From: a virus
Lineage: Duplodnaviria > Caudoviricetes
DNA: 58,630 nt
Reading direction: 5' to 3' (one strand)
IMG/VR virus record: IMGVR_UViG_3300027861_000034
Span: 1 to 58,630 of that record
Shown here: positions 6,020 through 51,394 of the stretch, in pieces
Layout: each line of letters opens with the position of its first letter
Position numbering within the stretch: the stretch's first letter is position 1
Made by a program: the position numbers and the translations under genes
The notes under the pieces: generated by a model
The model's database searches: none
Seen by the model: the letters and a program-made list of their open reading frames with translations, nothing else
What the model was told of the DNA's origin: nothing

Positions 6020-6592
6020 ATGGATTATACAGATGAAGAGGTGATAGATGAACTCTACTACTACTTAAACAAAAGAGTAGTGGTGGTGTCATCTTTGTGG
6101 ACTATCGATGGGTTCTTAATGGAGGATCGACACACAAATGAACGGTATTATGTTGGGAAGAAAGGGTCATTTTACCTAGACTGCCATACCATATATTCTG
6201 AAAATGTTTATGAGATTCAATTGATGGAAGATTACGCAATCGTAATAATGGATTTTTAAGGAGGAATAAATGAAACTGAATATGCACAACAAACTAAAGG
6301 AAAGTCTGCTAAAAGCCAAAGACCAAGGTTATACAGAATTTACGGTTGATTCACTTTTGGTTGAAGTTCAGAAACAGATCGACCACATGCAGGAGCAAGT
6401 TGATGGAGGATAGAGCAGACCCTAGATGCACCAAGGATTGTCACTACTGCTTTCATTATTATTATAGGGCATGTTTTGACGATGAGTATGACGATTATTT
6501 CAAAGTAACAAAAAGTTTGGTGGAGTTTTCTCTTCAACCAGATCTTATAGGGTTAGTTGAACAAGATAGACTTGACGAATTTAAGGAATTGT

Positions 6593-8308
6593 ATGGCAAA
6601 TTATAGAAAAGTAAAGAAAGGTGAAGAAGGCATCCCATCTGCTCTCAAGAAAATCGAGAAGATGGATGCCAATATGGAGCGCAGAATTCTTGTTGCTTCA
6701 ATCGTCTCTGACGAATATTGCTCCGACATTTTTAAGAATAGGAAATTAATTGGAGATCTCCTCCCTGCTAACAGTAGTAAGATGGTGTGGAATTTTGCAC
6801 TAAATTTCTATGACAAATGGAATTGTGCAGTAAGGGGATCGTTGAGAAATGTATTCGAAGATGAATCAAGGGAGATGTCAAAAGAACTATCTGATGATAT
6901 TGAAGATTTGTTGATTGGGGTTAGTAAGCAATACTCCAACGATGATTTCAATCATAAGTATGAATTTGAGCAAACTCAAAAATATATAGACGAGAGACAT
7001 CTTGAGGACAACTTGAAGGAAGCACAAGCTTTGCTTGATTTGGGTAGAGCGGAGGAAGCTCAAGAGTTGAAGATGAGCTTTCAACCTATTGATTGGGAAG
7101 ACTGCGATGGGGCTTTTGATCCGTTTAAAGATGCAGACATGATGGATCGATCTATTAATGAATCTGTGACTCCACTCACTAATCTTCGAGGAGGTTTAGG
7201 TCAATACATGAACCGAGAGATTACTCGTGGAAGCTACGTTTCGATAATTGCGGCCGAAAAAAGTGGTAAGACGTTCACCCTTATGGACATAGCTATACAA
7301 GCAATAAACCAAGGGTTAAATGTAGCGTTTGTAGGTCTAGGTGATATGAGCGATTCTCAGATGTGTCAGAGATTATTATCTATGGTGGCAAAACAGCCAA
7401 TAGAAAGTGCTAGTTGCGGAGAACGATTGGTGGTGGAGCTTGATTGTGTTCACAACCAAAATGGCTCATGTAACCACAAATGTGGAGAGTCTATTTTTAT
7501 TGAAGACACAGAAACAGGAGAAACTGAACGATTAGTTTACGAAGATCTTGAAGATGATTATGTGGCTTGTAGTGATTGCAGAAGAGACGAGAAATTATCA
7601 AAGAGAATCGGAAAGCAATTTAAGGGTGCAATTTGGCACAAGAAAGAATTCTTCGGAACTGAGTTTTGTGATGAGTTAGTTGGGTTGGATTTGAAGCAAG
7701 CTCAACTAGAAGTTGCCAAGATGTTAAGGAGAGGGAAGAAGGGTGACTATAGGTTTTATGCCTATTCAACAGGAAGCAAATCTGTTGGTGATATAGACAG
7801 AATCTTAAAAGAAGAGAAGAAGAAAACAGGATTTCACCCAGATCTTATTATTGCTGATTACTCTGATCTATTTGCTCCAGAAAACGGGATATCAATGTCT
7901 GATGAGAGGGGTATGTGTAATGCTAGGTATATGAAATGTCGAAGTATGGCACTAGAGTGGGATGCCTGTTTCCTCACGGCATTGCAGGCAAATTCAAACA
8001 CCTATAAAAAATTGATGCTTGATAGAGGTTCGTTTAGTTTGGATCGAAGAATACTATCTCATGCAACAGCGGTGTTTGGATTAGTTAAATCGCCAAAAGA
8101 TCATGAAATGAGCTCTTGCCGAATGGGGCAGATTCTAGCTAGGAATACTCGATTTACTGATGAGCAGGTTGTTATATTGCAAGATTTATCTAGTGGGCAA
8201 TTTCATATAGATTCTTATGTTGCAACATTGGCGGAACTGAAGGAGAGTCATCCTGCATACCTCGATGCTGAATTAAGAGAAAGGGATGAAAGGACAGATA
8301 GTAGATAA
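6593..8308 (+). CDS. DnaB-like (SF4) replicative helicase with Cys-rich insertion
   Basis: Walker A AAEKSGKT, LIIADYSD, TALQAN, RN motif; likely start ATG 6593. Confidence 0.8.
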   Translation: MANYRKVKKGEEGIPSALKKIEKMDANMERRILVASIVSDEYCSDIFKNRKLIGDLLPANSSKMVWNFALNFYDKWNCAVRGSLRNVFEDESREMSKELSDDIEDLLIGVSKQYSNDDFNHKYEFEQTQKYIDERHLEDNLKEAQALLDLGRAEEAQELKMSFQPIDWEDCDGAFDPFKDADMMDRSINESVTPLTNLRGGLGQYMNREITRGSYVSIIAAEKSGKTFTLMDIAIQAINQGLNVAFVGLGDMSDSQMCQRLLSMVAKQPIESASCGERLVVELDCVHNQNGSCNHKCGESIFIEDTETGETERLVYEDLEDDYVACSDCRRDEKLSKRIGKQFKGAIWHKKEFFGTEFCDELVGLDLKQAQLEVAKMLRRGKKGDYRFYAYSTGSKSVGDIDRILKEEKKKTGFHPDLIIADYSDLFAPENGISMSDERGMCNARYMKCRSMALEWDACFLTALQANSNTYKKLMLDRGSFSLDRRILSHATAVFGLVKSPKDHEMSSCRMGQILARNTRFTDEQVVILQDLSSGQFHIDSYVATLAELKESHPAYLDAELRERDERTDSR

Positions 8309-17155: not shown

Positions 17156-17166
17156 AAGGAGAAGAG

Positions 17167-17634
17167 ATGAAGAAGGTAGATGAGACAAGGCCGATAAGCG
17201 CAAGGATACCTATTGAGCTTTATGAGATCATAGAAGCTAAGCTGAAAGATGCTTGGGCTAAGGGCAAGAAAATACCACTCAAGACTAAGGGTAAGTTCAG
17301 AGACCCTAGACTGTCAGATATTTTGATTGATATGTTGGCTGATGCAGTGATCAAAGATGAACAGAGTGGTGAATATGTTGAGGACTTTTGGGATAGACTT
17401 GCGATTGCTCTCACAGAGAAAGGTGATTTAAAGGTTAGGTCTCTTGGGGTTGAGGACTGTAATAGGATACAGGATTTAGCTAGAAGCTACGGGTTTGAAT
17501 CTAATATTAGATCAAGTGCTTGTTATATTTTCTTTTATAAAAAATTCGGTAAGAAAGGTATGAGGGAGTTAACTTGCTCCGATTTTGAAGAGACATTTAC
17601 AGAACATAAAAACAGAGAGATAGAGAGGGATTAA
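17167..17634 (+). CDS. Putative ribbon-helix-helix DNA-binding protein
   Basis: N-terminal strand RPISARIP, helix IELYEIIEAKL, helix LSDILIDML (Arc/CopG pattern with a long loop). Confidence 0.55.
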   Translation: MKKVDETRPISARIPIELYEIIEAKLKDAWAKGKKIPLKTKGKFRDPRLSDILIDMLADAVIKDEQSGEYVEDFWDRLAIALTEKGDLKVRSLGVEDCNRIQDLARSYGFESNIRSSACYIFFYKKFGKKGMRELTCSDFEETFTEHKNREIERD

Positions 17635-18186: not shown

Positions 18187-18624
18187 ATGTGTGATCAATG
18201 TGAGATATACAAGGCTAGGATAGATGAGCTGGAGACTGCTATGAGTAGAACTAACACATCTTTTGGTAGGCTACTGAAGAATAGGGCACCTAAGAAAAAA
18301 GAGAAGACCACTGGGACTGATTGGTTTGATCAATTTAATCGCTATCAACAGGCTGACAGTAACTTCATACAGGCTTGGAATACGTTTGTAGAGTTCCGCA
18401 AGCAGAAGGGTAAGGCTATGACCTTGATCGCTGGACAGAGAATGCTTAGTAAGTTAGCACCGTTTGATCTATCTATTCAGACTGCGAGTTTGTATACAGC
18501 TGTAGATAAGGGATGGACTAACTGTTACCCCGAATCTGAAGGCAAGTCTTATGGTAGCTTTAAGCAAGAGAAGAGCGGTCAGTTTATAGGCGCACAAGTC
18601 GAAGTTAATTTGGAGGATTTATAG
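18187..18624 (+). CDS. Replication protein (initiator C-terminal-like domain)
   Basis: AW..FVEFRKQKGK.MT...GW motif typical of phage initiator C-termini; coupled to DnaB. Confidence 0.55.
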   Translation: MCDQCEIYKARIDELETAMSRTNTSFGRLLKNRAPKKKEKTTGTDWFDQFNRYQQADSNFIQAWNTFVEFRKQKGKAMTLIAGQRMLSKLAPFDLSIQTASLYTAVDKGWTNCYPESEGKSYGSFKQEKSGQFIGAQVEVNLEDL

Positions 18625-19955
18625 TGCCGATAGCTAGTATTGAGACTGAGAGAATTGTACTTGGTAAGATACTCGGCCTAGATGATTTCGATATTCAATC
18701 ACGGTTCATTAACATGTGTGATGTCGAGTGCTTCTTTGTTCCTATCCATAAAGACATTTGGGTATTGATGAATAAGCTGATGATCCAAGGACGTATGACT
18801 TGCCCTGCTACAGTATTCTCCGAGATAAGTATTGATGAGAACGTCTTAGCTGACATCTTGATCAATAAGTTTGATAGTAATGAGACTCTTAAATTCAACA
18901 TCAAAACCCTGCTAAACTATTCTGCTAGAAGGTTTTATAGTGAGAGTGGTAGATCAATAGAGGAGCTGGCTAATGTCGGTGGTGTTGATTGTTCTGATAC
19001 AATCCTTGAGGTTATAGACAGTATAGATAAGAGAGCTAAGGCTTTGAAGATCACTAAGCAACGTGACTCTAAGACCCTGCTATCAAGTATCGTTCACAAT
19101 ATGAAAGAGGGAGGTAGCAAAGAACTAAGGGTAGTGGAGTATGGAGTACCGCTATTCGATAAGTACTACAAGCATGAACGTGGTCACACTCATACGATAG
19201 GTGCTCAACCATCTGTAGGTAAAACTGCAATGGCACTAACTATTATGAGAGGAGTTCTACACGCTGGAGGTACAGTTTTTATATCAGTTAAGGAGTCTGA
19301 TGCTGAAGAGATAATGTGCAAGATGATATGCCAAGAGTCCAACGTAGCCTACTCTAAGATGAGATATGATCAGAGCGAACTAACTCAGCCGGAGTTTGAT
19401 AGGATTCAAAGAGCTATTGAGTATATCTATTCGATGCAGGAACGCATCTATATCTTTGGTGGTAAGGATTGGGAGCATTCAACAGAGTCTATAGAAGCTC
19501 AATTGGAGGCCATAGAGCAACGTGGAGTGCAGTTAGACTTAGTTGTGACTGATTATGTACAGAACCTTAAGGTACCGCTTAGGATTCAATCTAGGCCAAG
19601 GTACCAACAAGTAGAATGGATGGTAGAAAAGATGGCTGACCTTCACAAGAGGTTTGATGTTGCTGGAGTACTACTATCACAGCTGAACAGAAGTATAGAT
19701 GGGGTGCCTCACTTACATAATCTAAAGGAAGCCAGTAAGATTGAGGAAGAGAGTTCGATGATCACGTTCTTGCATAGAGATAAGGAGACCCAGCCGGTAA
19801 ACAACCAGCTACCTACTATGGTCTATAGCGAGAAGAACCGTAATGGAGAGCTTTGGGGAATGAGAGATGGGTTTGTAATGAATATACCTTCTACTCACTT
19901 CAGTACTAAGCTACATAAATATGAACCAAAATACGCACCGAGTGTACAGGTGTAG
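18624..19955 (+). CDS. dnaB: DnaB-like replicative helicase
   Basis: E..VLG N-terminus, GAQPSVGKT, VVTDYVQ, LSQLNR, IEE, KNRNG motifs. Confidence 0.9.
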   Translation: MPIASIETERIVLGKILGLDDFDIQSRFINMCDVECFFVPIHKDIWVLMNKLMIQGRMTCPATVFSEISIDENVLADILINKFDSNETLKFNIKTLLNYSARRFYSESGRSIEELANVGGVDCSDTILEVIDSIDKRAKALKITKQRDSKTLLSSIVHNMKEGGSKELRVVEYGVPLFDKYYKHERGHTHTIGAQPSVGKTAMALTIMRGVLHAGGTVFISVKESDAEEIMCKMICQESNVAYSKMRYDQSELTQPEFDRIQRAIEYIYSMQERIYIFGGKDWEHSTESIEAQLEAIEQRGVQLDLVVTDYVQNLKVPLRIQSRPRYQQVEWMVEKMADLHKRFDVAGVLLSQLNRSIDGVPHLHNLKEASKIEEESSMITFLHRDKETQPVNNQLPTMVYSEKNRNGELWGMRDGFVMNIPSTHFSTKLHKYEPKYAPSVQV

Positions 19956-19971
19956 ACAAGGAGAAGAGAAG

Positions 19972-24806: not shown

Positions 24807-27800
24807 TTACTTTGCATTATCTATTACCTCGTATGAATCCTCAATCATGTTGTACATGTGTACTGATGGGAGACCTAGAGGCTCAGCTATAACGTGAGTT
24901 AACTGCATCATTGACTCCAACCACTCCTCATCTCTTAGCATATTAGCGAACATACCAAACCTGTACATTGACCCCGATATAGAAGTCTGTCCAAGGAACG
25001 GAGGCTTAGGTAGGCCAGCCATTGCATACGCTGAGGCACTTACCATATCTCTCACAATAGGAATACCGCTAGAAGTAAGAGGGGCGAACATCAACATAGT
25101 TAAGTCTCTCTCTATTGCATCATCTCTTTCAGCACCCATTGACCCCATCATAACTGCATTGAGCAATCCACCACCGGCAAACATCCAAGGTAGTATCATC
25201 TGACTCATAACGATAGCACCAGCATTCTGAGCTTTGCTACCTTTACCCTTAGCTATTGCACTAGCCCCACTCATAGCCATACGCAAATATGATAGCTGAG
25301 AGTTATTGAACATCGTGAACAGCTTAGAGAATGTACCACTCTGCTGTAGCATACCAAGGTCTTTGCTCTTACCACTCTGTTGCATGTGAGAGGTTATGAT
25401 CTCAAAGTCCTCAATAGCTTTAGCCTTAGCATCTGCCTCGCTCATTCCTTTCTTGATGTACTGATCCTTCTTGTAGCTATACATAGCCCAACCACCGGAG
25501 ACAATCGCTATCTTATCACCTAGCTTAGTTGGAGACATAGCCCAATTCTCTAGGGACTTAGTGGTAGACTTAGCTGAGAACTCTGTAAACTGATGTGACT
25601 GCTCAAGGTTTCTCAATGCCTCATTTATATTGTTGGCCTTATAGCGATCCTCCATCATCTCACTAGATTCAGTTAGCTCCTTCATACGCTCCTTCCATAA
25701 GTCCGGTCTAGCAAAGAACTCTGATGTACGCACACCCCACTCAGTAGGTGGCATCTCAATCATATACGCCATAGCTGATGTTAACTGTTTAGTAAATGCC
25801 CCAAGGTTAAGAGCCATCTTACTACGAATGAACCCGTTGATCCAAGCATCCAGTACCGGTATCCTCATAACATTCTGAATACCCTCAGCCTCAAACTTAG
25901 TGAACAGCTTATTGATCAGAACATTAGTCTCATTCCCGAAGTAATGCTTAACCCACTTCTGTACATCCTCACCTTGAATAACCTCACGTATCTCTTTCAT
26001 ACCTTCAGTCTTAGCTATATAGTTCTCCATCATCATTACATGTGAAGTCATAATATCAAAGGCATCCATATTCTCCATGTCAATAGAGTTGTCGTTCTCA
26101 ACACGATCAACCAAAGCCTTGTTAACTAATCCTGTAGCATCCATCGCCCCTGTCTTCTTCAGTAGGTCAGTCACTTCTTGATCAGCAATATAGCTTCTTC
26201 TCAGCGGAGTATAGTTCTCTTCTTGCTTGAGGTTAACACCATTCACATTAACGAATACCTCATTGATCCTAGGGTAGTACTCTCGATAGAATACCAACAT
26301 ATCATCTGCTAGAGCAACGGCACCTTTGAATGTAGCAAGGTACTCTTCAACCTGCTTGATAGTCTCATCTGTAAACTTACTCTTCTCAAGAGCTTTTCTA
26401 CCAGCCTCATTCTTAGCAAGGTTACGGATAGTGATAGCATCACCGGCACTTATCTTCAAGTCCTTACCATCAACCAGTATTCCAGTTTCCTTACTCTTAC
26501 GAAAGCTCTCTAGGGTCTTAACATTAAGCTCACCATCCTTTCCGATATGCTTAGCAACCATAGCTGACATTATATCCTGCTGTGTTCTTAGGTTCTTGCT
26601 CAGAGTGTTGGTCATTTTGTTTATGTTTCTCATAACGAACTCAGAAGCCGTACCCTCAAACAATCCACCTACAGCATCCAGCCTGTCCATAAGAGAACGG
26701 ATATTCTGATTCCATCCCATAGAGTTACCTAGCTTGATTACCCAATCCTTACCCTTGGCTCTAGGCTTACCAGTTCCACCCTGCATAGACTTAACGATTG
26801 CATCTGAAGCCCACTTCTTACGCCCCTCATCCATAAACGCTATAGCTTTCTTAGCAAGCACACCTTGTCTAACAGTGTACTCTACCAGCTCAGCTATCTG
26901 CTCTAGCCTTACGCTGTCCATACCACCTAACTGATTAAATGTATTCAGCATTGAAACCTTAGCATTGTCTCCACTGTCTACAGCTGTATTCAATTCCTTG
27001 GCATACTCCTCTTGACTTAGATTAAAGATACGTTCTGCCTCAGTAAGGAACGTGTGTATATCTGCTCCACGCTGACCACCACCAAACTTACCCTCTCCAC
27101 TCTTAGGACGATACTTATCAAATAGCTTGTCAATCTTAGCACTGATACCATCACGCTCTATACTTGCTTTGATGTCCTCTATTTTCTGAATAGTCTCTTC
27201 ATATATATCACGACCTAGCTTCTCTCCAGCCTTATTGATCTTGCCAATAGCACTAGCCACAAGTTTCTTTTCATTGACGTTCCTAGCTCTCCAACCTTTA
27301 TTCAATCGGTTAAGCTCATCCATCAACTCTGTCTTGGTAGCCTGTTGCTTGCGCATCTTAGCTATACGTTTATCTCTACGCCTACGCTTACCTTCCTCAA
27401 TACCAAGAGCACGTTTGTTCTGACGAGCAGTGAATAGCGCATCTCCCTTAGCTGTCTCAAGGTCTGATATTTTCTTGAGTGTACCATTGCTCACGTACTT
27501 CAGAATATCCTCGGCATCATTGATCTTAGCCATCACCTTGTTTAGTTCTTTGGTACGGGCTTCAAGCTCTAACTCATAGTCATGGATCGTATCAAGTGTA
27601 GACTCTCTACCATCTAGCCACTCCTCGTAAGGCACTGCCATATCTAGCTGAGCTGTTACATCTGTCTGTACTGGCTGGGTTGCATCAAATTGATCTTTGG
27701 TGTATATGACAAAATCATCACCATCAAGACTTATTATATTATTCTCCGCAACACTCTTAACTGCATCAATCGCATTGCTTCTAGAAGTAGCATACTCGCC

Positions 27801-30800
27801 ACCGATATTATGAACACTTCCATTTTCGTCTGTAAATTCAGCTCTCCATTCACCTCTTGGATATGTCTCAGTTGAAAACTTTCTAAACTCAACTTCATAA
27901 TCACCGATTACTCCATCTACATTCAACGGAACAACTGCTGTATATATGTTTGTGTTTGTTTCTATATCGTAATCACCAGTAGCTTTTAGTTTTACCTTGA
28001 CATTCGTTGGTAGCTCTGAACTCAATTGTTTTTTTGTCTGAGTTGTATCAACCTTCTCAAAGCTGTCAAGGAACTGTTTGAACTCCCGACTCATCTTACC
28101 CGACTCTTTGAACTTTCTCAAAGCAAGTGCTCTACCTACGATGTAATTCTTCATAGCCTGTATAGCATTAAAGAAAGAACGTATATCCATCCCAAGAGTT
28201 TTGTGCATCGGTTTAACCTCAAGTCTCCACTCCACCGCTCTATCAGATGTCCACTCTACATTGGATTGAGTCTCATTCTTTCTGAGCAATTCTTGATAGT
28301 CAGCTTTCTCTTTACCGGTTGTACCTTCAATAAGTTTCTTTAGGTGATTTCTCCAACCCACACGCTCTGCTGTAATCTTCATATCCCAATTAGAATCTTG
28401 AGCCATCATACCTTTGTAGGCCATCTCAGAACTTTCTTCTATAACTGTTGAAGCATCATAGCCGTAGTACAGGTGAATCATACCATCTCTAGTAAGACCT
28501 CTTGCACTCACAGACTTGAGCACCGTATCAGTAACCTCATCTATGTTCATACCCGAATCACGTATCAGCTTCTTAGCCTCATCTTCAGTAAGGGTTCCCG
28601 ACTCAATAAGAGAACTCAGTGTATTTTTCTTACCATCTACAACTACCGTATCCTCTCCGAAGTTAGAACGAACCCAGCTAACCATAGCCTGTGATAATCC
28701 ATCAGCTTCAGTTATATGATCTAGCCTCTCTAGCTGTTTTGCTATTACGTCCACTCTGCCGGCACTTTCATCAAGACCCATCTTCTTACCCAAAGATTTG
28801 ATAACATGGTCTCCAGCTTTCTCTAATTGAGTCTTAACGGTACTCTTGGCATCAGTTTCTATAGCACCAATCAATTGAGTAGGGTTATACAGCCCATCTA
28901 CATCACCGTTGCTATTAATGATCACACCCTCACGATCAAGAGCCTCAACCATAATTATATCCCTAGCACTACCAACACCAGCCTTGTACCGATCCATCAT
29001 AGCCGGTAACTGCTCACGCATCTTAACCTCTGTCTCTGCCATATCAACAGTATACTCATCCGGTGTAGCTTCTCTCAACTTCTCATTGAAAGCCTCAACG
29101 TATGCAACGGGCATTATACCTTCAGCTCGGTTATTGGCTACAATTGCAGACAAACCATCAAGGGTTAGTGGCTTCGCAGTGTCCTCATCTAGGCCGGATT
29201 CCAGTAACAGTTGCGCTCTGCTCATACTATCCGTAGGCAACATACCCGAAACAGCCCGTGCTTCATTGGCAATTTGCTCAATAGTTGAATACCAAACATC
29301 AATCTCCACATCACCCATCGCATTCTCAAAGTTTATGCGGTCAGTTAGTGACTGTCTATCATTACCAACATCAACAGTTACAGGCTTTTCTTTAGTCTCA
29401 CCCTCAGTTGTCTCTTCTTTTTTGTCTACAAGTGTAGCCAGTTTCTTTTTATACACCGCCATTTCGTTTGCTCTACGTGCATTGAACTCTGTGTTAGCCT
29501 TGACTCTCCCACTCAGACCCATTTTATCAGCAGTAGTTTTCATAACATGACCACCGGCTGACATCATTTGACCACCAAGCATACCGAAGACAACAGCTTT
29601 TTCCATCTCTTCTTTCTGAGCCTCAGTCCAATCAGCCTCAAGAGCTTTGTTGATCATCTCAAGTGACGTTATATTTGGGTTATCCTCTCTGACTTTACCA
29701 GCTTCTACAGCAGTAAATTGAGTAGCAGTCTGTATTCCTTCCTCAACTCCCTCTTTTAATCCCTCTACCACAACACCTTTCAGAGCACCTTTGGTTGTAG
29801 CTTTCTTGATATAGCCCTTGAATGATGCCTCAACACCCTCTTTGCTCATAGCGATAATAGCATCCTTACCGAACTCCTTAACGTATCCCTTGATAAGATC
29901 ACCTGCACCGAACTCATGTGCCATACCAATGTTCTCAACACCAGCCATTATCACACCGGCACCTACCGATATATGACTAGATATTTCATGGCTTATGCCC
30001 TCATTGCGCATCATTGCATACGTTTCACCGCGATACTGTTGATAGTTATTATGAGTGAATCCAGCTCTCCAGCCCCATCCTGCACCAGCCAGCGCACCAA
30101 TACCAGTAGCAGAACCAGCTCCAGCACCAGCTCCAATGGCTAATAGGTTATCCGGATCAAATGCAGAGCGACCCATAAACAACATTGAGTCAGTCATTGT
30201 ACCAGCGAACTCACCGACAGATGTATCATACGGTACCTGTAACTGAAATTTACTTTGACTAGCTAGTAGAGAATCAATCTGCTCCATGTTATCAGAGCTT
30301 ACAGCCCCAGCCATAGCCTCATTAAAGTCGTACCGGTCAGCTGAATTGTTCCATAGTTGCTCGAACTGAAGAGTGAAATCCCCACGCCCACCGCCAACGA
30401 TACCCGATACAGCGTCATAATGCTCAGCTATACCCTCGTTAACATTGAATGCAGAGTTCATAATAGGCAGGATATTATCGTACACATACTCCTCACCTTT
30501 CTCTTGAATGCTTCTCAGAGCAGGATCATTTGAGTTAAGTATAAACTTGGTAAGAGCACTCTTGCTTTGCATCTCCTTGCGAGCGTCAGTGTCCTCAATC
30601 ATTGAAGTGTCTACACCTGTATACTGGTCTACGTACATGTGATCAGAGAACATTTTCTTAGTGTCCTCCATCTGTCTTAGCTGACCCATACGCACTTGGA
30701 GGGACTGTAGCTCTTTATTGCTAAGCTCAACCTTATCTCTATTATCAAACAGGTATTGACCTTCACTTAGGTTAGATGGCATCTTAGTATCAATTCCATC

Positions 30801-30941
30801 AAACGCTGTATCATACATATCCACTTGACTTGGTGTAAGTTCTGCATTGAGTTTTCTATCCCAATAATCCCTAATACCATTTGTTAAGCCTATGCTCTCC
30901 GGCTTGCCTTGTATTGCACTCCACTCTTCATTAACTGGCAT
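24807..30941 (-). CDS. Large internal virion/ejection protein (gp16 position, polyvalent-protein-like)
   Basis: 2044 aa, helical; Gly/Ala hydrophobic segment and EG.EEG.Q motif; position after gp14/gp15 equivalents. Confidence 0.75.
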   Translation of the reverse strand: MPVNEEWSAIQGKPESIGLTNGIRDYWDRKLNAELTPSQVDMYDTAFDGIDTKMPSNLSEGQYLFDNRDKVELSNKELQSLQVRMGQLRQMEDTKKMFSDHMYVDQYTGVDTSMIEDTDARKEMQSKSALTKFILNSNDPALRSIQEKGEEYVYDNILPIMNSAFNVNEGIAEHYDAVSGIVGGGRGDFTLQFEQLWNNSADRYDFNEAMAGAVSSDNMEQIDSLLASQSKFQLQVPYDTSVGEFAGTMTDSMLFMGRSAFDPDNLLAIGAGAGAGSATGIGALAGAGWGWRAGFTHNNYQQYRGETYAMMRNEGISHEISSHISVGAGVIMAGVENIGMAHEFGAGDLIKGYVKEFGKDAIIAMSKEGVEASFKGYIKKATTKGALKGVVVEGLKEGVEEGIQTATQFTAVEAGKVREDNPNITSLEMINKALEADWTEAQKEEMEKAVVFGMLGGQMMSAGGHVMKTTADKMGLSGRVKANTEFNARRANEMAVYKKKLATLVDKKEETTEGETKEKPVTVDVGNDRQSLTDRINFENAMGDVEIDVWYSTIEQIANEARAVSGMLPTDSMSRAQLLLESGLDEDTAKPLTLDGLSAIVANNRAEGIMPVAYVEAFNEKLREATPDEYTVDMAETEVKMREQLPAMMDRYKAGVGSARDIIMVEALDREGVIINSNGDVDGLYNPTQLIGAIETDAKSTVKTQLEKAGDHVIKSLGKKMGLDESAGRVDVIAKQLERLDHITEADGLSQAMVSWVRSNFGEDTVVVDGKKNTLSSLIESGTLTEDEAKKLIRDSGMNIDEVTDTVLKSVSARGLTRDGMIHLYYGYDASTVIEESSEMAYKGMMAQDSNWDMKITAERVGWRNHLKKLIEGTTGKEKADYQELLRKNETQSNVEWTSDRAVEWRLEVKPMHKTLGMDIRSFFNAIQAMKNYIVGRALALRKFKESGKMSREFKQFLDSFEKVDTTQTKKQLSSELPTNVKVKLKATGDYDIETNTNIYTAVVPLNVDGVIGDYEVEFRKFSTETYPRGEWRAEFTDENGSVHNIGGEYATSRSNAIDAVKSVAENNIISLDGDDFVIYTKDQFDATQPVQTDVTAQLDMAVPYEEWLDGRESTLDTIHDYELELEARTKELNKVMAKINDAEDILKYVSNGTLKKISDLETAKGDALFTARQNKRALGIEEGKRRRRDKRIAKMRKQQATKTELMDELNRLNKGWRARNVNEKKLVASAIGKINKAGEKLGRDIYEETIQKIEDIKASIERDGISAKIDKLFDKYRPKSGEGKFGGGQRGADIHTFLTEAERIFNLSQEEYAKELNTAVDSGDNAKVSMLNTFNQLGGMDSVRLEQIAELVEYTVRQGVLAKKAIAFMDEGRKKWASDAIVKSMQGGTGKPRAKGKDWVIKLGNSMGWNQNIRSLMDRLDAVGGLFEGTASEFVMRNINKMTNTLSKNLRTQQDIMSAMVAKHIGKDGELNVKTLESFRKSKETGILVDGKDLKISAGDAITIRNLAKNEAGRKALEKSKFTDETIKQVEEYLATFKGAVALADDMLVFYREYYPRINEVFVNVNGVNLKQEENYTPLRRSYIADQEVTDLLKKTGAMDATGLVNKALVDRVENDNSIDMENMDAFDIMTSHVMMMENYIAKTEGMKEIREVIQGEDVQKWVKHYFGNETNVLINKLFTKFEAEGIQNVMRIPVLDAWINGFIRSKMALNLGAFTKQLTSAMAYMIEMPPTEWGVRTSEFFARPDLWKERMKELTESSEMMEDRYKANNINEALRNLEQSHQFTEFSAKSTTKSLENWAMSPTKLGDKIAIVSGGWAMYSYKKDQYIKKGMSEADAKAKAIEDFEIITSHMQQSGKSKDLGMLQQSGTFSKLFTMFNNSQLSYLRMAMSGASAIAKGKGSKAQNAGAIVMSQMILPWMFAGGGLLNAVMMGSMGAERDDAIERDLTMLMFAPLTSSGIPIVRDMVSASAYAMAGLPKPPFLGQTSISGSMYRFGMFANMLRDEEWLESMMQLTHVIAEPLGLPSVHMYNMIEDSYEVIDNAK

Positions 30942-43529: not shown

Positions 43530-43987
43530 TATATCACCTCGTATTTTACCATGAGCATAGATCGTCCATCCTCAAAGTAGTTGTTTATTACATCTATAAT
43601 ATCGAATCCCAATCGCTGTGCTATTTTAGCTGACATCAAATTCTCAACTGGTATAGTGCCTATAAAGTTCTTAACCCCTACTGCCTTGCAAGCCTCAAAC
43701 GAGCTTTCAATAATCTTCATTAGGTACCTGTGTTTATTGATTACTCCCCAATGGAACTCAACCGTTACAGTTGTTCTGTGGTCTAAAAACATATATCCAA
43801 TCAAAGTATTTTCATAGTAGACATTGTAAAAATTCACTCTTGGACTATTGCGAGCTTCTATAATTGACGAGTAAGAATGAAACGGAGATTGACCAAGAGG
43901 AACGCTGTGTACACCTGTATACAACTCATCCCACTCATCATCAGTCTGAACCCATTTAATGTCGATCTTATATTTGTCAAACATCAA
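43529..43987 (-). CDS. Second GNAT acetyltransferase-like protein
   Basis: EN..S.K....LGF; aligns by eye with 33792-34259. Confidence 0.75.
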   Translation of the reverse strand: MMFDKYKIDIKWVQTDDEWDELYTGVHSVPLGQSPFHSYSSIIEARNSPRVNFYNVYYENTLIGYMFLDHRTTVTVEFHWGVINKHRYLMKIIESSFEACKAVGVKNFIGTIPVENLMSAKIAQRLGFDIIDVINNYFEDGRSMLMVKYEVI

Positions 43988-44465
43988 ATATCTCCCTTAC
44001 TGCTTTCTTGACCACCTCATAATCTATCTCATCAAGGCGGTTTAAATGCAGATCGTTATGATGCTTCTTACATAAGAATATAACTATATCGGGATAATCG
44101 TAGTCGGGATGGTGCATCTGAGCTTTCTCTTCCCCACATATAATACAAGGCTCCTTCTGAATAATACCTCTACGGGCAAGCTCTGAGGCTATTTTATGAG
44201 CGTTGATCTTCTCCGGATTGTTTCTGATATAATTCTCCTTAGCTTTTTTGATGTACTTCTTAGGAATATCCCTTGCGTTATGGTTTGCACGTTGACATTC
44301 TCTGCAAATATCGTTGTACTTGAACCCACTCTTACCGTGAGTGTGCATTGTGAACGCCTCTGATGGCTTAGTTTCACTGCAACCCTTGCGTTTTGTTGAA
44401 CATGTAACCTCTTTCGGCCCGTATCTCAACAGGTTTTTTCTCGATTTGTGGACTAACCTTGCCAT
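43977..44465 (-). CDS. HNH-like zinc-binding protein
   Basis: CREC, CIICG...HHPDY....V.FLC..HH. Confidence 0.7.
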   Translation of the reverse strand: MARLVHKSRKNLLRYGPKEVTCSTKRKGCSETKPSEAFTMHTHGKSGFKYNDICRECQRANHNARDIPKKYIKKAKENYIRNNPEKINAHKIASELARRGIIQKEPCIICGEEKAQMHHPDYDYPDIVIFLCKKHHNDLHLNRLDEIDYEVVKKAVREIFDV

Positions 44466-44475
44466 AATTTCTCCT

Positions 44476-46044
44476 TTATATTAAAAAATAATCATCATTT
44501 GATTCACATTCATTCTCTTCAGCATCTAAATCAGCCAGCCAACTCCTAGCCTTAGCGGAACACCACCCAAAAGCCTGTGCTCTTACAGCATATCGGAACG
44601 CATCCATAGGGTCAGAACACCAGTTATGCAGTGGCTTAAGTGCTATTCGCTCTCTCTCGTCTACCTCCGGATAAGTATAACCTTCCATTGCCTCGTAGAA
44701 ATAGTCTAGGCGTTCCTTTTGAGCCTTATCTTGAGGAGTTCCGGTATAGAAGTACCATTTATAGAAACGTGATCGTACAACCTCTATATCCTCGTTTATG
44801 TCTGCACATCGTGGCACCATCTCCATACGCAATGAACCAAACTCTTTACGGAACATATCTTGTATCTCTAAGGCATAACCTTGATCATCATATACTGCTA
44901 CAGATTTCTTCTTACTATCGTGTGGTAAAAAGATTGCATCATACTGATACCCGTATTTAGCACTATAATCATCCATAATCATCTTAAAGTGAGACACACC
45001 CATTCCACGACAGGCATAAAAGTCAATTACCCAAGGTCTGTCACCACGTTGCTGAAAGAATACCATAGCGGTTCTATCACCCTTAGAGCCGGAGGTTGTA
45101 GAGGCACCAAGGTCAAACGCCACATATACAGGTAGTTTTTTGTCATAGACATAATCACCGAAGCGGTTTTCTTTGTGGGCTATAGTGATCTGATTAGCGT
45201 AGATAACACCATCTAGGCAACCTTCAAATGCACATTCAAATTCCTGTTGTATCTGCTGTTCTGACATCTGCCCTTCAGCTCTGATAGCTTCAAGTTCTTT
45301 CTTGGTCATTACACCGGTATCACTATTAGGGCGTATTACAGCGAACCAATCTTCTTGCAGGATATTCGTATCAAGGACACCTCTTATGAGCTTATAGAAG
45401 TGATTCTTACCACGTGGAGTACCATTGAACCAAGCCCATCCACCGTTCTGAGCAAGGATAGGTCGAGCGTATATCCAAGCCTTTGGGTCTGATAGAGAAT
45501 ACTCTGAGAAGATGATACCGGCAAAGTTGGTACCAACAATAGTTTTATCGTAGCGATCTGAACCGCCTATTCGGATAGTGGAACCGTTGATGAGAGTAAT
45601 GATCATGCGTGTATTGTTGATCATGTAATCATTGGTTCGTGGGTTTTTCTTAATGAGGTGTTTAGGTATATGGTCAATGAATCGGTGTCCATCGTTATCA
45701 ATACCATCCCATACAACGTCACGGCCTTGCTGAGCTGTAGGGAACAGGTAGATATAGTTACCGGTAGTCTCCATTGCCTTTACGAGAAGCATAGATACGG
45801 ACATATAATCCTTTCCCGATCTACGGTGCATACAGTAAGCTACGAATCGCTTTGTCATCATAGCTTCAATTACATCTATCTGATATTTGCGTGGTACAAA
45901 GTTATAGGGAACTCTGATACCGTACTTCTTTTGATTCTCTGCTACAACTGGAATAAAAAAGTCCTTCATCCACTTCTTGTAGTTCTTTTCGTTCTGCCAC
46001 CATTCGGTAGGTTTACCGATAGCTGTAGTAAATTTCTTGCCCAT
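44476..46044 (-). CDS. terL: Terminase large subunit
   Basis: HRRSGKD Walker A, FSEY Walker B variant, GTPRGKN, QEFEC.F, FDLG, LPHD, DAFRY. Confidence 0.95.
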   Translation of the reverse strand: MGKKFTTAIGKPTEWWQNEKNYKKWMKDFFIPVVAENQKKYGIRVPYNFVPRKYQIDVIEAMMTKRFVAYCMHRRSGKDYMSVSMLLVKAMETTGNYIYLFPTAQQGRDVVWDGIDNDGHRFIDHIPKHLIKKNPRTNDYMINNTRMIITLINGSTIRIGGSDRYDKTIVGTNFAGIIFSEYSLSDPKAWIYARPILAQNGGWAWFNGTPRGKNHFYKLIRGVLDTNILQEDWFAVIRPNSDTGVMTKKELEAIRAEGQMSEQQIQQEFECAFEGCLDGVIYANQITIAHKENRFGDYVYDKKLPVYVAFDLGASTTSGSKGDRTAMVFFQQRGDRPWVIDFYACRGMGVSHFKMIMDDYSAKYGYQYDAIFLPHDSKKKSVAVYDDQGYALEIQDMFRKEFGSLRMEMVPRCADINEDIEVVRSRFYKWYFYTGTPQDKAQKERLDYFYEAMEGYTYPEVDERERIALKPLHNWCSDPMDAFRYAVRAQAFGWCSAKARSWLADLDAEENECESNDDYFLI

Positions 46045-46092
46045 ATGTTTTCCCGTATTTAATTTCTTTTAAGATAAACACGGTTTCATATA

Positions 46093-46121
46093 TTGACAAA
46101 CGATAAAATGGATAATAGTTT
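46093..46121 (+). promoter_or_regulatory. Sigma70 promoter antisense to the late operon
   Basis: TTGACA-17 nt-TAGTTT. Confidence 0.6.
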
Positions 46122-46127
46122 TTACTT

Positions 46128-46208
46128 AGAGTCTTTTCCCTTAAGTCTCTTCTCTGAACCCTTTGTGGTTGCCCCCTTACTAGCGACTACTGGTATAGGG
46201 GGCTTTTT
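46128..46208 (+). ncRNA. Putative ~80-nt small RNA
   Basis: Lies between a plus-strand promoter and a plus-strand intrinsic terminator; no ORF; CU-rich 5' part. Confidence 0.55.
46171..46208 (+). terminator. Plus-strand intrinsic terminator
   Basis: GCCCCCT-TACTAG...CTGGTA-TAGGGGGC hairpin followed by TTTTT; no U tract on the minus strand. Confidence 0.75.
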
Positions 46209-46254
46209 ATTGCCTCTAGGGTAACGGGTTTCATCTCTGTGGTGTGAGCCGATA

Positions 46255-46515
46255 CTACACCTCCTTTACTAGCATTTTTTTATCATACTTTGCGAACCTT
46301 CGCCTAACACTAGAGCCTTTACATACCTTTCTGAACATAAGACCTTGAGGACACTTCTCAACCCTAACTGCTTGACACAAAGATACAGCTCTCCCAAGAA
46401 CCTCCATGCCTTGAAATTGCATTGATCGACTAAACCACATTTCACTAAACACATACATATTCAACAGCTTTATCATCTGCTTTTTTGTAAACTTCTTTCT
46501 ACGCCTTCTGTTCAT
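46255..46515 (-). CDS. Basic hypothetical protein
   Basis: GGAG RBS; palindrome copy just upstream. Confidence 0.5.
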   Translation of the reverse strand: MNRRRRKKFTKKQMIKLLNMYVFSEMWFSRSMQFQGMEVLGRAVSLCQAVRVEKCPQGLMFRKVCKGSSVRRRFAKYDKKMLVKEV

Positions 46516-46689
46516 ACTATTTCTCCGTTAGTGTTTACATCTGTATACAAAAAAACCGAATCATCTGTTGGCTTCTCATCTTAGTATGTAGGATCAACAA
46601 CAAAATCATCGGTAGTGACTCGGCATCATCAAAAGGGATTATTTTCCGCCTTGTCCAAGAGCACAGGGATTAAGCTCCCTTATAGCTTC

Positions 46690-47244
46690 TTACAAAAATT
46701 CTGCTAAAGCATCTTCACCCTCAAACTGCTCCGGCTCCTCTTCAACTACCAAAGCCTTGTTCTTCGCTTCAAAGTCCTTCTTAAACTTATCAACCTCTTT
46801 CTGAACCTTTACAGCTACGTTAAGACGCACACTAGGATCATAGGTACCACGACCGAAAACCATGCAAAACTCTTTAACAGCCTTGGTCATTACGTTGATA
46901 CCACTAGCCATAGCATTTAGATCACCTGTCTGCTGAGCTAGATTACAAAGGGTCTTACTTCTTTGGACTGCATCACTGAATATTGAAGCGATACTATTCA
47001 TATCCATTTCGTTCTTATTGTCTATGAACTGGCGTTGATTGTGTAGCTCTGACTCATAGTAAGCCCTAGCCTCCGGAGCCTTTAGAATACGTTGTGCGCT
47101 CTGATAGGCTGATTTGTTACTCTTACATTCGGGGTAAACCATCTTATAAGCTGATGTCTTACTCATACCACTTAGTACGTGTTGAATAACCATTCGATGA
47201 TTATCATTCAATGCCTTTGGCACCCACTCTTTTGGATCACTCAT
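46690..47244 (-). CDS. terS: Terminase small subunit
   Basis: N-terminal HTH (G...T.AY...Y......A...A.R.L); upstream of terL. Confidence 0.7.
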   Translation of the reverse strand: MSDPKEWVPKALNDNHRMVIQHVLSGMSKTSAYKMVYPECKSNKSAYQSAQRILKAPEARAYYESELHNQRQFIDNKNEMDMNSIASIFSDAVQRSKTLCNLAQQTGDLNAMASGINVMTKAVKEFCMVFGRGTYDPSVRLNVAVKVQKEVDKFKKDFEAKNKALVVEEEPEQFEGEDALAEFL

Positions 47245-47374
47245 TTATTCTCCTTTTGTTTACAAATAGGGCAGTTCCATTCAAATTCTATGAACTTACT
47301 TATACTATCGCCTCTAAAGTCTTGATCATACCATCCTATAACCCTAGCGCACTTACGACATACCTTCGGAGTGC

Positions 47375-47806
47375 TCATTGATCTTGCCCTCTACCGTATT
47401 CCATCCATACCCATTCAGCTACAGACTTCTGTTCATTATGTGTTAGATCAGCCTTGTCAAAAACCTGTTCTATAGCATCCATTAACTTTATTGAGTCTGA
47501 AGCATCCCTACGCCCAACAGTGATAGTTATTTGCTCTAACTGTTCTATTCCAGCTATTACCTCAAATTCCTTCATTTTCTTAGCTCGCTTCTCTTTATAG
47601 TCCGGCTTACAGTTATCACAGCAATACTCTTTGGTAATATCAGTTAGCTGATCACCACATCCTTTACACACCCCTATCATATCCACCTCCTCTTGAGTTT
47701 CTGGCTCATAATGAGTCCAACATGTTGTACAAGCAACATCACCCGTACTTCTATCAGCGTGATAGTTTAAGCTACCACACGGACAAACCGACTTGTACCT
47801 TTTCAT
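47375..47806 (-). CDS. Zinc-finger hypothetical protein
   Basis: CPCG, CTTC, CKGC, CDNC. Confidence 0.6.
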   Translation of the reverse strand: MKRYKSVCPCGSLNYHADRSTGDVACTTCWTHYEPETQEEVDMIGVCKGCGDQLTDITKEYCCDNCKPDYKEKRAKKMKEFEVIAGIEQLEQITITVGRRDASDSIKLMDAIEQVFDKADLTHNEQKSVAEWVWMEYGRGQDQ

Positions 47807-50898: not shown

Positions 50899-51394
50899 TC
50901 TTAAGCAATGGGACTTGCAGGGTCGCGACCTAGTTAAGCTAAGAACTAGGCGTGAAAGTGAAGAGAAAGTATTGTTGGTGTTGCTAGTCGCTGGAATAGG
51001 GTTGGTAATGCTGGCAGATGCTTTAATCATGGGGTAACAATATTTTACCGTGGTATCAATTGAAAGTGGTATCACGCTATAAGTATTGTGTACAGCTGTA
51101 TACAAGTTAACAAGAACCCTATAAAATAGGAGATACCAAATGGTATTCAATCGGCATGCAAATGCTAGGCAATTAGGCTTAAACCACTAACAAGTGAGGC
51201 AATATGAAAGAGTATTGTTTAAAGCAAGTACGGCTTATCAGATTATTAGCTGTACAGATGAAAGTAAGTGACGATGTAGCTACAGAAATTTGGTTAGAAA
51301 AGGGCTATGCGGTTCGTTATGCCAATGAATATGGCTATTTGAAAAGTGAATAAACTGTATACAGCTGTATACAAAGTAAGGAAGGGAAAAGATT

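Follow-up and report, generated by a model that had tools for sequence, protein, structure and literature searches.

The terL region of the phage record

The window analysed here is a whole virus record, 58,630 bases long, which comes from a seawater metagenome and is estimated to be 85% complete. The phage is podovirus-like, with a T7-type portal (PF12236, E 1.5e-89), tail tube proteins and a major head protein. A simple gene call gave 91 genes, nearly all of which are preceded by a strong Shine-Dalgarno (SD) sequence of the AAGGAG type; no tRNA was found in the record. The replication and recombination set comprises DnaD/DnaC-like loaders, two DnaB-like helicases (genes at 6557-8308 and 18624-19955, plus strand), a clamp, and Erf, RecE-like and RusA proteins. 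A scan of 47 proteins (ORFs of at least 90 aa in a record estimated at 85% completeness) found neither an RNA polymerase nor a DNA polymerase. Because no RNA polymerase was among these proteins, we infer that transcription of the phage relies on the host polymerase. On the late arm, a 2044-aa protein (24807-30941, minus strand) had no PHROG match at E 1e-5, and the same was true of an adjoining protein of 717 aa.

The feature under study is a candidate transcription unit on the plus strand. The original prediction placed it in the minus-strand region between terS and terL, and the location holds with the qualifier that an ORF of 86 aa lies between terS and the unit (Table 1). This ORF had no family match in protein family searches. 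The unit falls within the 210-nt gap that runs from the 86-aa ORF to terL. Directly 3' of terL there is an HNH/endonuclease VII-like gene (43977-44465, minus strand; phrog_2340, E 7.5e-17).

Table 1. Positions of the genes, predicted signals and proposed targets discussed in the text
Feature	Position	Strand	Remarks
terL	44476..46044	minus	522 aa; downstream of the sense promoter; phrog_2, E 1.5e-31
terL promoter, TTGTCAA-N12-TGTTTATCTT (predicted)	46071..46099	minus	-35 TTGTCA 46099-46094, 17-nt spacer, -10 TATCTT 46076-46071
TTGACA, candidate -35	46093..46098	plus	5-bp overlap with the terL sense -35 TTGTCA (46099..46094, minus)
TAGTTT, weak candidate -10	46116..46121	plus	3/6 matches, 17-nt spacing
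5' hairpin (predicted)	46128..46150	plus	stems AGAG/CUCU and CUU/AAG, loop UUCCCUU; at the inferred transcription start
CU-rich linker (UCUCUG), then small hairpin AACC/GGUU (46157-46170)	46151..46170	plus	predicted fold
Intrinsic-terminator hairpin	46171..46203	plus	13 pairs, one bulge, one G-U pair; -20.2 kcal/mol
U-run TTTTTATT	46204..46211	plus	directly 3' of the hairpin
86-aa ORF	46255..46515	minus	between terS and the plus-strand unit; SD = GGAGAAATAGT-ATG
terS-like gene	46690..47244	minus	184 aa; phrog_51, E 4.6e-9
Claimed target, RBS of gene 51395	51382..51394	plus	13 nt, one G-U (11 Watson-Crick); chance level
Claimed target, RBS of gene 17167 (GGAGAAGAG)	17158..17166	plus	duplex rank 10/91
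Claimed target, RBS of ATG 19972 (GGAGAAGAGA)	19960..19969	plus	duplex rank 5/91
Palindrome-preceded gene starts	17167, 19972, 21390(-), 38534(-), 46515(-), 47244(-), 50359, 51395, 53527, 57040		

A terminator oriented against the local genes

On the plus strand, the hairpin at 46171-46203 is a GC-rich stem-loop with a U-run directly after it, which is the arrangement of an intrinsic terminator on a transcribed strand. On the minus-strand side of the same hairpin the next bases are AACCACAAAGGG and there is no U-run. This agrees with the original prediction of a terminator for the plus strand only.

We conducted a terminator census of the record, in which a site was a single hairpin of at most 47 nt with an energy of -9 kcal/mol or better and at least 6 T in the 8 positions after the stem. 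The census yielded 22 sites with a hairpin and a T-run, and 46171-46203 was second among them at -20.2 kcal/mol. Six intergenic sites reached -12.9 kcal/mol or better; five of these point in the direction of the local genes and 46171-46203 alone points against them. By contrast, the best of the 15 sites within genes had -12.8 kcal/mol and the rest were weaker. The packaged terminator scan omitted the hairpin because of its bulge. Its rank in the census and the comparison of intergenic with in-gene energies show the hairpin and its U-run to be genuinely of terminator grade; no other strong site in the record is oriented against its neighbours.

Conservation upstream of terL

A search of metagenome contigs with TerL gave two useful relatives, L008 (86% TerL identity, at the N-terminus) and L006 (75%); a third contig, L007, is without upstream DNA. 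L008 is a contig of 2.6 kb without early genes. It is the one relative that carries the unit, so all comparisons of the unit are between two sequences (n = 2), and the sense promoter of terL has two informative relatives. Other searches gave little of use. A DNA search with 45000-47500 against cultured phages, by megablast and blastn, returned no match, and tblastn with TerL against cultured phages returned 515 records, all below 60% identity and the best at about 33%. In viral contigs, TerL matched four loci at 33% and a two-sequence TerL alignment matched two loci at 25-27%; genome contigs gave no TerL match. The terL promoter pattern was found in viral contigs in two near-identical stretches that by eye are unlike the locus apart from the pattern itself, and a combined pattern of the 5' hairpin and the -35 had 0 matches there. 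A look-up of sequencing runs for 44400-47400 listed five seawater DNA runs, one of which may be the source, and no RNA run. The other four yielded only short pieces of 35-151 nt; the sole piece on the unit was 38 nt long with 7 differences and provided no usable relative.

Neutral sites are saturated between the record and L008, because just 24 of 64 fourfold third positions in terL agree. The intergenic alignment of the two nevertheless scored 79.5, as compared with 34.4 +/- 6.6 (maximum 59.5) when shuffled 500 times. Conservation is concentrated in several blocks: the terminator with its A/U-tract and stems, the 5' hairpin (AAGAGnCTTAnGGGAA..ACTCTA on the sense strand), CTATT (TAGYTT on the plus strand), TTTGTCAA and the sense -10. 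The linker shows little conservation and a 12-nt length difference from that of L008.

Within the terminator stem, five of the ten pairs aligned with L008 are unchanged, three are changed on both sides and two are changed to G-U, and in this comparison of two sequences the structure is therefore kept on the same strand by compensatory change. Of the two strands, the one antisense to terL gives the more stable hairpin (-21.7 versus -18.9 kcal/mol for the sense strand in the record and -26.6 versus -19.6 kcal/mol in L008) because the G-U pairs, one in the record and two in L008, become C-A on the other strand. The U-run of L008, TGTTGTTTTAT, is on the same strand as in the record. We regard as shown that there is a terminator, which strand it is on and that the cassette around it is conserved. 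In L006, the antisense terminator and the plus-strand -10 are both absent and the sense promoter is kept.

In L006, three sense-strand tRNA genes (Trp, Phe and Ser; 149-485) lie upstream of the terL promoter in place of the antisense unit, and the gap upstream of this promoter looks like a slot whose RNA genes vary. The small gene that separates terS from the hairpin is the basic 86-aa ORF in the record and a 51-aa ORF with a CxxC...CxxC arrangement in L008 (1734-1888). These two ORFs are by eye unalike, and the conserved cassette starts only at the A/U-tract of the terminator. The gap that follows terS (46516-46692, minus strand; 1496-1702 in L008) begins with a near-identical block of about 35 nt, AGCTATAAGGGnGCTTAAnCCCTGTGnTCTT, with an AGGG/CCCT hairpin; read on the sense strand, the gap has GATTCGG(Y)TTTTTTT at its end. 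The region had no Rfam match and may be a long structured sense-strand element or a terminator.

Two candidate promoter faces with one -35

The terL promoter (TTGTCAA-N12-TGTTTATYKTAAA) was listed by the promoter scan with 9/12 consensus matches, and its pattern is unique in the record (1 match versus 0.00 expected). TTGTCAA-N12-TGTTTAT(Y)(K)TAAA is found just 5' of the terL RBS in the record, L008 and L006 (3/3), and TTGTCAA is invariant across them. Its hexamers, 17-nt spacing and conservation mark this minus-strand site as a predicted promoter of the sigma-70 type, from which the terL transcript would start near 46064.

The plus-strand promoter of the original prediction, TTGACA-17-TAGTTT, fared less well. 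Both hexamers and the spacing are there, but the -35 matches at 6/6 and the -10 at only 3/6 (T1, A2 and T6), and because of this -10 the site is under the threshold of the promoter scan and was not listed. The pattern TTGACA-N16-18-TAnnnT occurs twice in the record where 3.18 occurrences are expected, and across the record sigma-70-like sites do not exceed their frequency in shuffles. A better explanation of the TTGACA is that it forms the mirror face of the conserved sense -35 of terL. The two faces would share this -35 because TTGTCAA/TTGACAA is nearly symmetric, and the sense face is probably the primary one because the sense promoter is common to L008 and L006 as well. What favours a weak plus-strand promoter is its context, since the sequence alone gives nothing in its favour: in L008 the hexamer is TAGCTT with an identical spacing of 17 nt, and both phages have the start of the 5' hairpin 7 nt beyond this -10. 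The TAGTTT, and the conserved CTATT (TAGYTT) with it, may just as well belong to an A/T-rich upstream element that serves the sense promoter.

The predicted RNA

The plus-strand interval 46124-46210 folds at -29 kcal/mol (z -3.8, with 0/200 shuffles as good) into a 5' hairpin and a long 3' hairpin that is followed by UUUUUAU. The 5' hairpin alone has -4.7 kcal/mol (z -3.06). As originally predicted, the 5' end exposes a UUCCCUU loop in the minimum-energy fold, and the loop is also unpaired in the centroid fold. The stems of this hairpin and its UUCCC core are kept in L008, where the loop is CUUCCCCCU; the stems are invariant and so do not covary, and in L008 the hairpin does not surpass its shuffles (z 0.12, with 106/200 as good). 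The middle hairpin is GGCC/GGCC at the matching place in L008, with two aligned pairs changed on both sides. The predicted RNAs, 83 nt in the record and 103 nt in L008, would have three hairpins each and would both start at AGAG, 7 nt past the -10. Their whole-RNA folds have z of -3.30 and -4.17, respectively, and a MAFFT alignment places 11 predicted pairs in common columns, out of 24 in the record and 30 in L008.

The original prediction described about 80 nt with no ORF. A non-coding unit is plausible, but a 43-aa ORF with a TTG start (46093..46224; 38 aa from the ATG at 46108) spans it. This ORF lacks an SD, the terminator lies within it, and L008 does not keep it. The units of the record (46128-46203) and L008 (1896-1986) differ in length by 3 and 12 nt, and the same frame is open in both. 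A small non-coding unit on the plus strand is plausible because the terminator is strong, strand-specific and kept with compensatory changes in L008, and because the layout of three hairpins is common to both phages.

Among 4227 Rfam models there were 0 matches at the gathering thresholds; the only match up to E = 5 was RybB. A packaging RNA of the φ29 type, considered for the position beside the packaging genes, was dropped, as there was no Rfam match and a terS/terL system is present. A repeated operator at the inverted repeat 46128-50 was dropped too, as the motif is unique in the record, and a search for local repeats found nothing relevant.

Pairing with ribosome-binding sites

It had been proposed that the RNA acts in trans, through its CU-rich loop and linker, on the SD regions of early genes 51395, 17167 and 19972 and shuts them off at translation. 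The sequences behind this proposal are all in place: AGTCTTTTCCCTT at 46130-46142, GTCTCTTCTCT at 46145-46155, AAGGGAAAAGATT at 51382-51394, and GGAGAAGAGA 5' of the ATGs at 17167 and 19972. The complementarity itself is also real, with 13 nt including one G-U for 51395 and 9 Watson-Crick pairs with G-U ends for 17167 and 19972. However, it does not exceed chance when it is set against shuffles or against coding windows, as follows.

We paired RNA 46124-46166 against a -25..+3 window from each of the 91 genes. The longest run was 13 with G-U allowed, the longest Watson-Crick run was 11 and the best duplex had -20.6 kcal/mol. This best duplex was formed with the RBS of the late portal gene; 51395 was second at -20.0 kcal/mol, and 19972 and 17167 ranked lower still (Table 1). 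Among 1000 dinucleotide shuffles, 53% had a run of at least 13, 17% had a Watson-Crick run of at least 11 and 70% had an equal or better minimum energy, so the pairing failed the shuffle control proposed with the original prediction. For the mean energy over all RBS windows, 97.8% of the 1000 shuffles were at least as good. Of 400 natural windows antisense to coding sequence, 15% reached a run of 13, 3.5% a Watson-Crick run of 11 and 18% the best energy, with a CU content of 57% in these windows as compared with 72% in the candidate.

The RBS windows were also barely better as targets than coding sequence. Their mean duplex was -10.08 kcal/mol versus -9.62 kcal/mol in 6635 coding-sense windows, the share at -16 kcal/mol or lower was 13.2% versus 7.1%, and 82 coding windows reached -20 kcal/mol or lower. 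The RNA has no CTCC and therefore would not pair with the GGAG core that is present in 50 of the 91 RBS windows; GGGAA is present in 4 and GAGAAGAG in 2. For an SD-targeting sRNA, then, the seed does lie in an unpaired loop of the predicted fold, but the complementarity is not beyond what composition gives. Together, these data count against trans-acting shut-off of early genes. Because the pairing fails its controls, it should not serve as evidence for a translational layer of shut-off.

The three proposed target RBSs do adjoin a palindrome, TGTANACA, as had been noted, but so do the starts of 10 of the 91 genes, and the palindrome-adjacent genes as a group pair no better than the others (median -10.5 versus -9.5 kcal/mol). 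The palindromes lie directly 5' of the RBS and are often doubled (GTCTACAACTGTAGAC, TGTATACAGCTGTATACA); the equivalent in L008 is TGTATACAAATGTAGACA, ahead of its small Zn-ribbon-like ORF. Their role could be that of operators or of promoter elements specific to the phage. Hairpin promoters of the N4 kind were considered for them and dropped, since there was no RNA polymerase among the 47 proteins scanned.

A possible divergent RNA at the terL promoter

The interval is best explained, from its sequence and conservation, as the upstream half of a conserved control cassette for terL. The reading that we tentatively prefer, as possible rather than probable, is that it yields a divergent non-coding RNA of about 80 nt, of the λ OOP and P22 sar kind, with a -35 shared with the terL promoter, a real terminator and a local action. 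We infer the transcript, its start and its function as follows. The weak plus-strand face, TTGACA-17-TAGTTT, would initiate near 46128 and give an RNA made up of the 5' hairpin with its UUCCCUU loop, the small middle hairpin and the strong terminator (46171-46203 and the U-run). Because the faces have -35 base pairs in common, polymerase bound in one direction would exclude the other orientation, and the two promoter faces would compete. The terminator would halt the divergent transcript before it enters the 86-aa ORF and terS in antisense. The RNA could also pair with transcripts that read through from upstream, which are the sole fully complementary ones, as OOP and sar do with theirs. The original prediction that it is cis-antisense to the terL leader fits these read-through transcripts, but the RNA would have no overlap with the leader predicted from terL's own promoter; by its geometry, it would overlap only RNA reading through from the 86-aa ORF.

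That L006, with neither the terminator nor the plus-strand -10, has only the sense promoter is consistent with a divergent RNA, as the two plus-strand elements are missing together. Other results argue against one. The plus-strand promoter is sub-threshold and the comparisons have n = 2; the 5' hairpin is without covariation and its L008 version is at the level of shuffles; the terminator hairpin folds on the sense strand too; and indels of 3 and 12 nt that keep the frame are a weak hint of coding. This last hint leads to a small hydrophobic protein of 38 aa, from the ATG at 46108, encoded on the plus strand. The frame 46093/46108..46224 is open and the indels leave it open in L008 as an ORF of 59 aa, but neither start has an SD, which almost all genes of this phage do have, the record and L008 disagree in the starts, the ends and most residues, and the terminator with its U-run lies inside the frame ahead of the stop codon. 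We find such a protein barely credible. The trans-acting anti-SD sRNA is very unlikely as well. In its favour are the pairings with 51395, 17167 and 19972, the presentation of the UUCCCUU seed in a predicted loop with a core kept in L008, the rarity of a Watson-Crick run of 11 among natural antisense windows, and the precedent of P1/P7 c4 RNA, whose known mode is antisense pairing presented by a loop at an RBS (PMC12197685). These are outweighed by the shuffles, in which chance level was not exceeded for run, Watson-Crick run or energy and the mean energy was nearly always matched or bettered, by the RBS windows that are little better than coding windows, by the late portal gene as the top RBS, by the absence of CTCC and by the palindrome-adjacent genes. 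In the divergent-RNA reading that we prefer, the RNA is not a general anti-SD regulator. A bolder version of that reading, which we regard as a long shot, would have the direction of polymerase at the shared -35 in a lytic marine podovirus set the timing of terL and at the same time release an RNA whose UUCCC loop silences RBSs of the GGGAA type (51395, 51760 and terL).

In two further explanations the RNA has no role. It may be that there is no plus-strand RNA, that the GC-rich hairpin is a 3' stabiliser or processing site of the sense mRNA from the upstream small gene, and that two DNA elements serve the terL promoter, the inverted repeat at 46128-46150 as an activator site near -75 and the A/T-rich stretch as a UP-like element. 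The sense-strand hairpin is indeed stable (z -2.99 in the record and -4.37 in L008), in L008 it comes directly after the stop codon of the upstream gene, and hairpin, promoter and terL stand in the usual order of an operon boundary. Invariant stems in the 5' hairpin are what a DNA site would have, and activators of late operons that act upstream of packaging genes have been described for Gram-positive phages (PMC3753634). We nonetheless consider this unlikely. In both phages the sense strand has no U-run after the hairpin, three positions of the stem pair as G-U on the plus strand, which makes them C-A on the sense strand, the plus-strand U-run of the record is unexplained by coding, with the end of the 86-aa ORF about 45 nt away, and the inverted-repeat motif, being unique in the record, is not a repeated operator. 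Alternatively, the plus-strand RNA could be a functionless by-product of spurious divergent initiation at the symmetric -35, with the terminator kept as an insulator for the 86-aa ORF and terS. The near symmetry of the -35, the terminator as the best-supported element and the poorly conserved linker are all compatible with this. We think it improbable, since the 5' hairpin with its UUCCC core, which an insulator does not need, is among the best-conserved blocks despite saturated neutral sites, and since the middle hairpin is kept with a changed sequence.

Comparison with known systems

The λ OOP and P22 sar RNAs are about 70-80 nt long, a size that the predicted RNA would share, and RsaE/RoxS are C-rich-loop sRNAs of Gram-positive bacteria. 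Like P1/P7 c4 RNA and sRNAs of the RsaE/RoxS type, the predicted RNA has a C-rich hairpin loop that is able to face G-rich RBSs. Unlike c4 and the C-rich-loop sRNAs, its pairing is at chance level and it has no CTCC for the dominant GGAG core. RybB (RF00110) has the same generic layout, with a short 5' region and then a terminator hairpin, but the unit scores 15.3 bits (E = 2.8), below the gathering score of 40, and is not a member of that family.

The closer likeness is with OOP and sar, which are short antisense RNAs of phages, each with a promoter and a terminator to itself (PMC12197685). With these, the unit would have in common the self-contained arrangement from promoter to terminator opposing an operon, and full complementarity to a transcript of the operon. 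Of the two signals that such a unit has on the opposite strand, the terminator is present here and the promoter is weak. OOP overlaps the 3' end of cII and sar the RBS of ant (PMC12197685), whereas for the unit here the overlap would be confined to read-through RNA from the intergenic stretch upstream of terL's own promoter. It also differs in that its promoter would share a -35 with the terL promoter, and in being a predicted transcript only.

Antisense terminators have been mapped in other phages. In lytic Pseudomonas phages, 9% of the mapped terminators are antisense-oriented and there are 20 antisense RNAs with defined starts (PMC10914365). The case here resembles these in the lytic type of phage, the intrinsic terminator that opposes the genes and the short antisense transcript, here predicted, from a separate start; those were mapped by ONT-cappable-seq in unrelated phages (PMC10914365), whereas ours is a prediction from sequence and a single relative. 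Should the transcript prove real, it would provide an uncultured marine case of a small antisense or divergent RNA in a lytic phage, located at the promoter of the packaging-motor gene. The compact arrangement around a shared -35 would then add to the growing list of phage antisense RNAs, most of which are without an assigned function.
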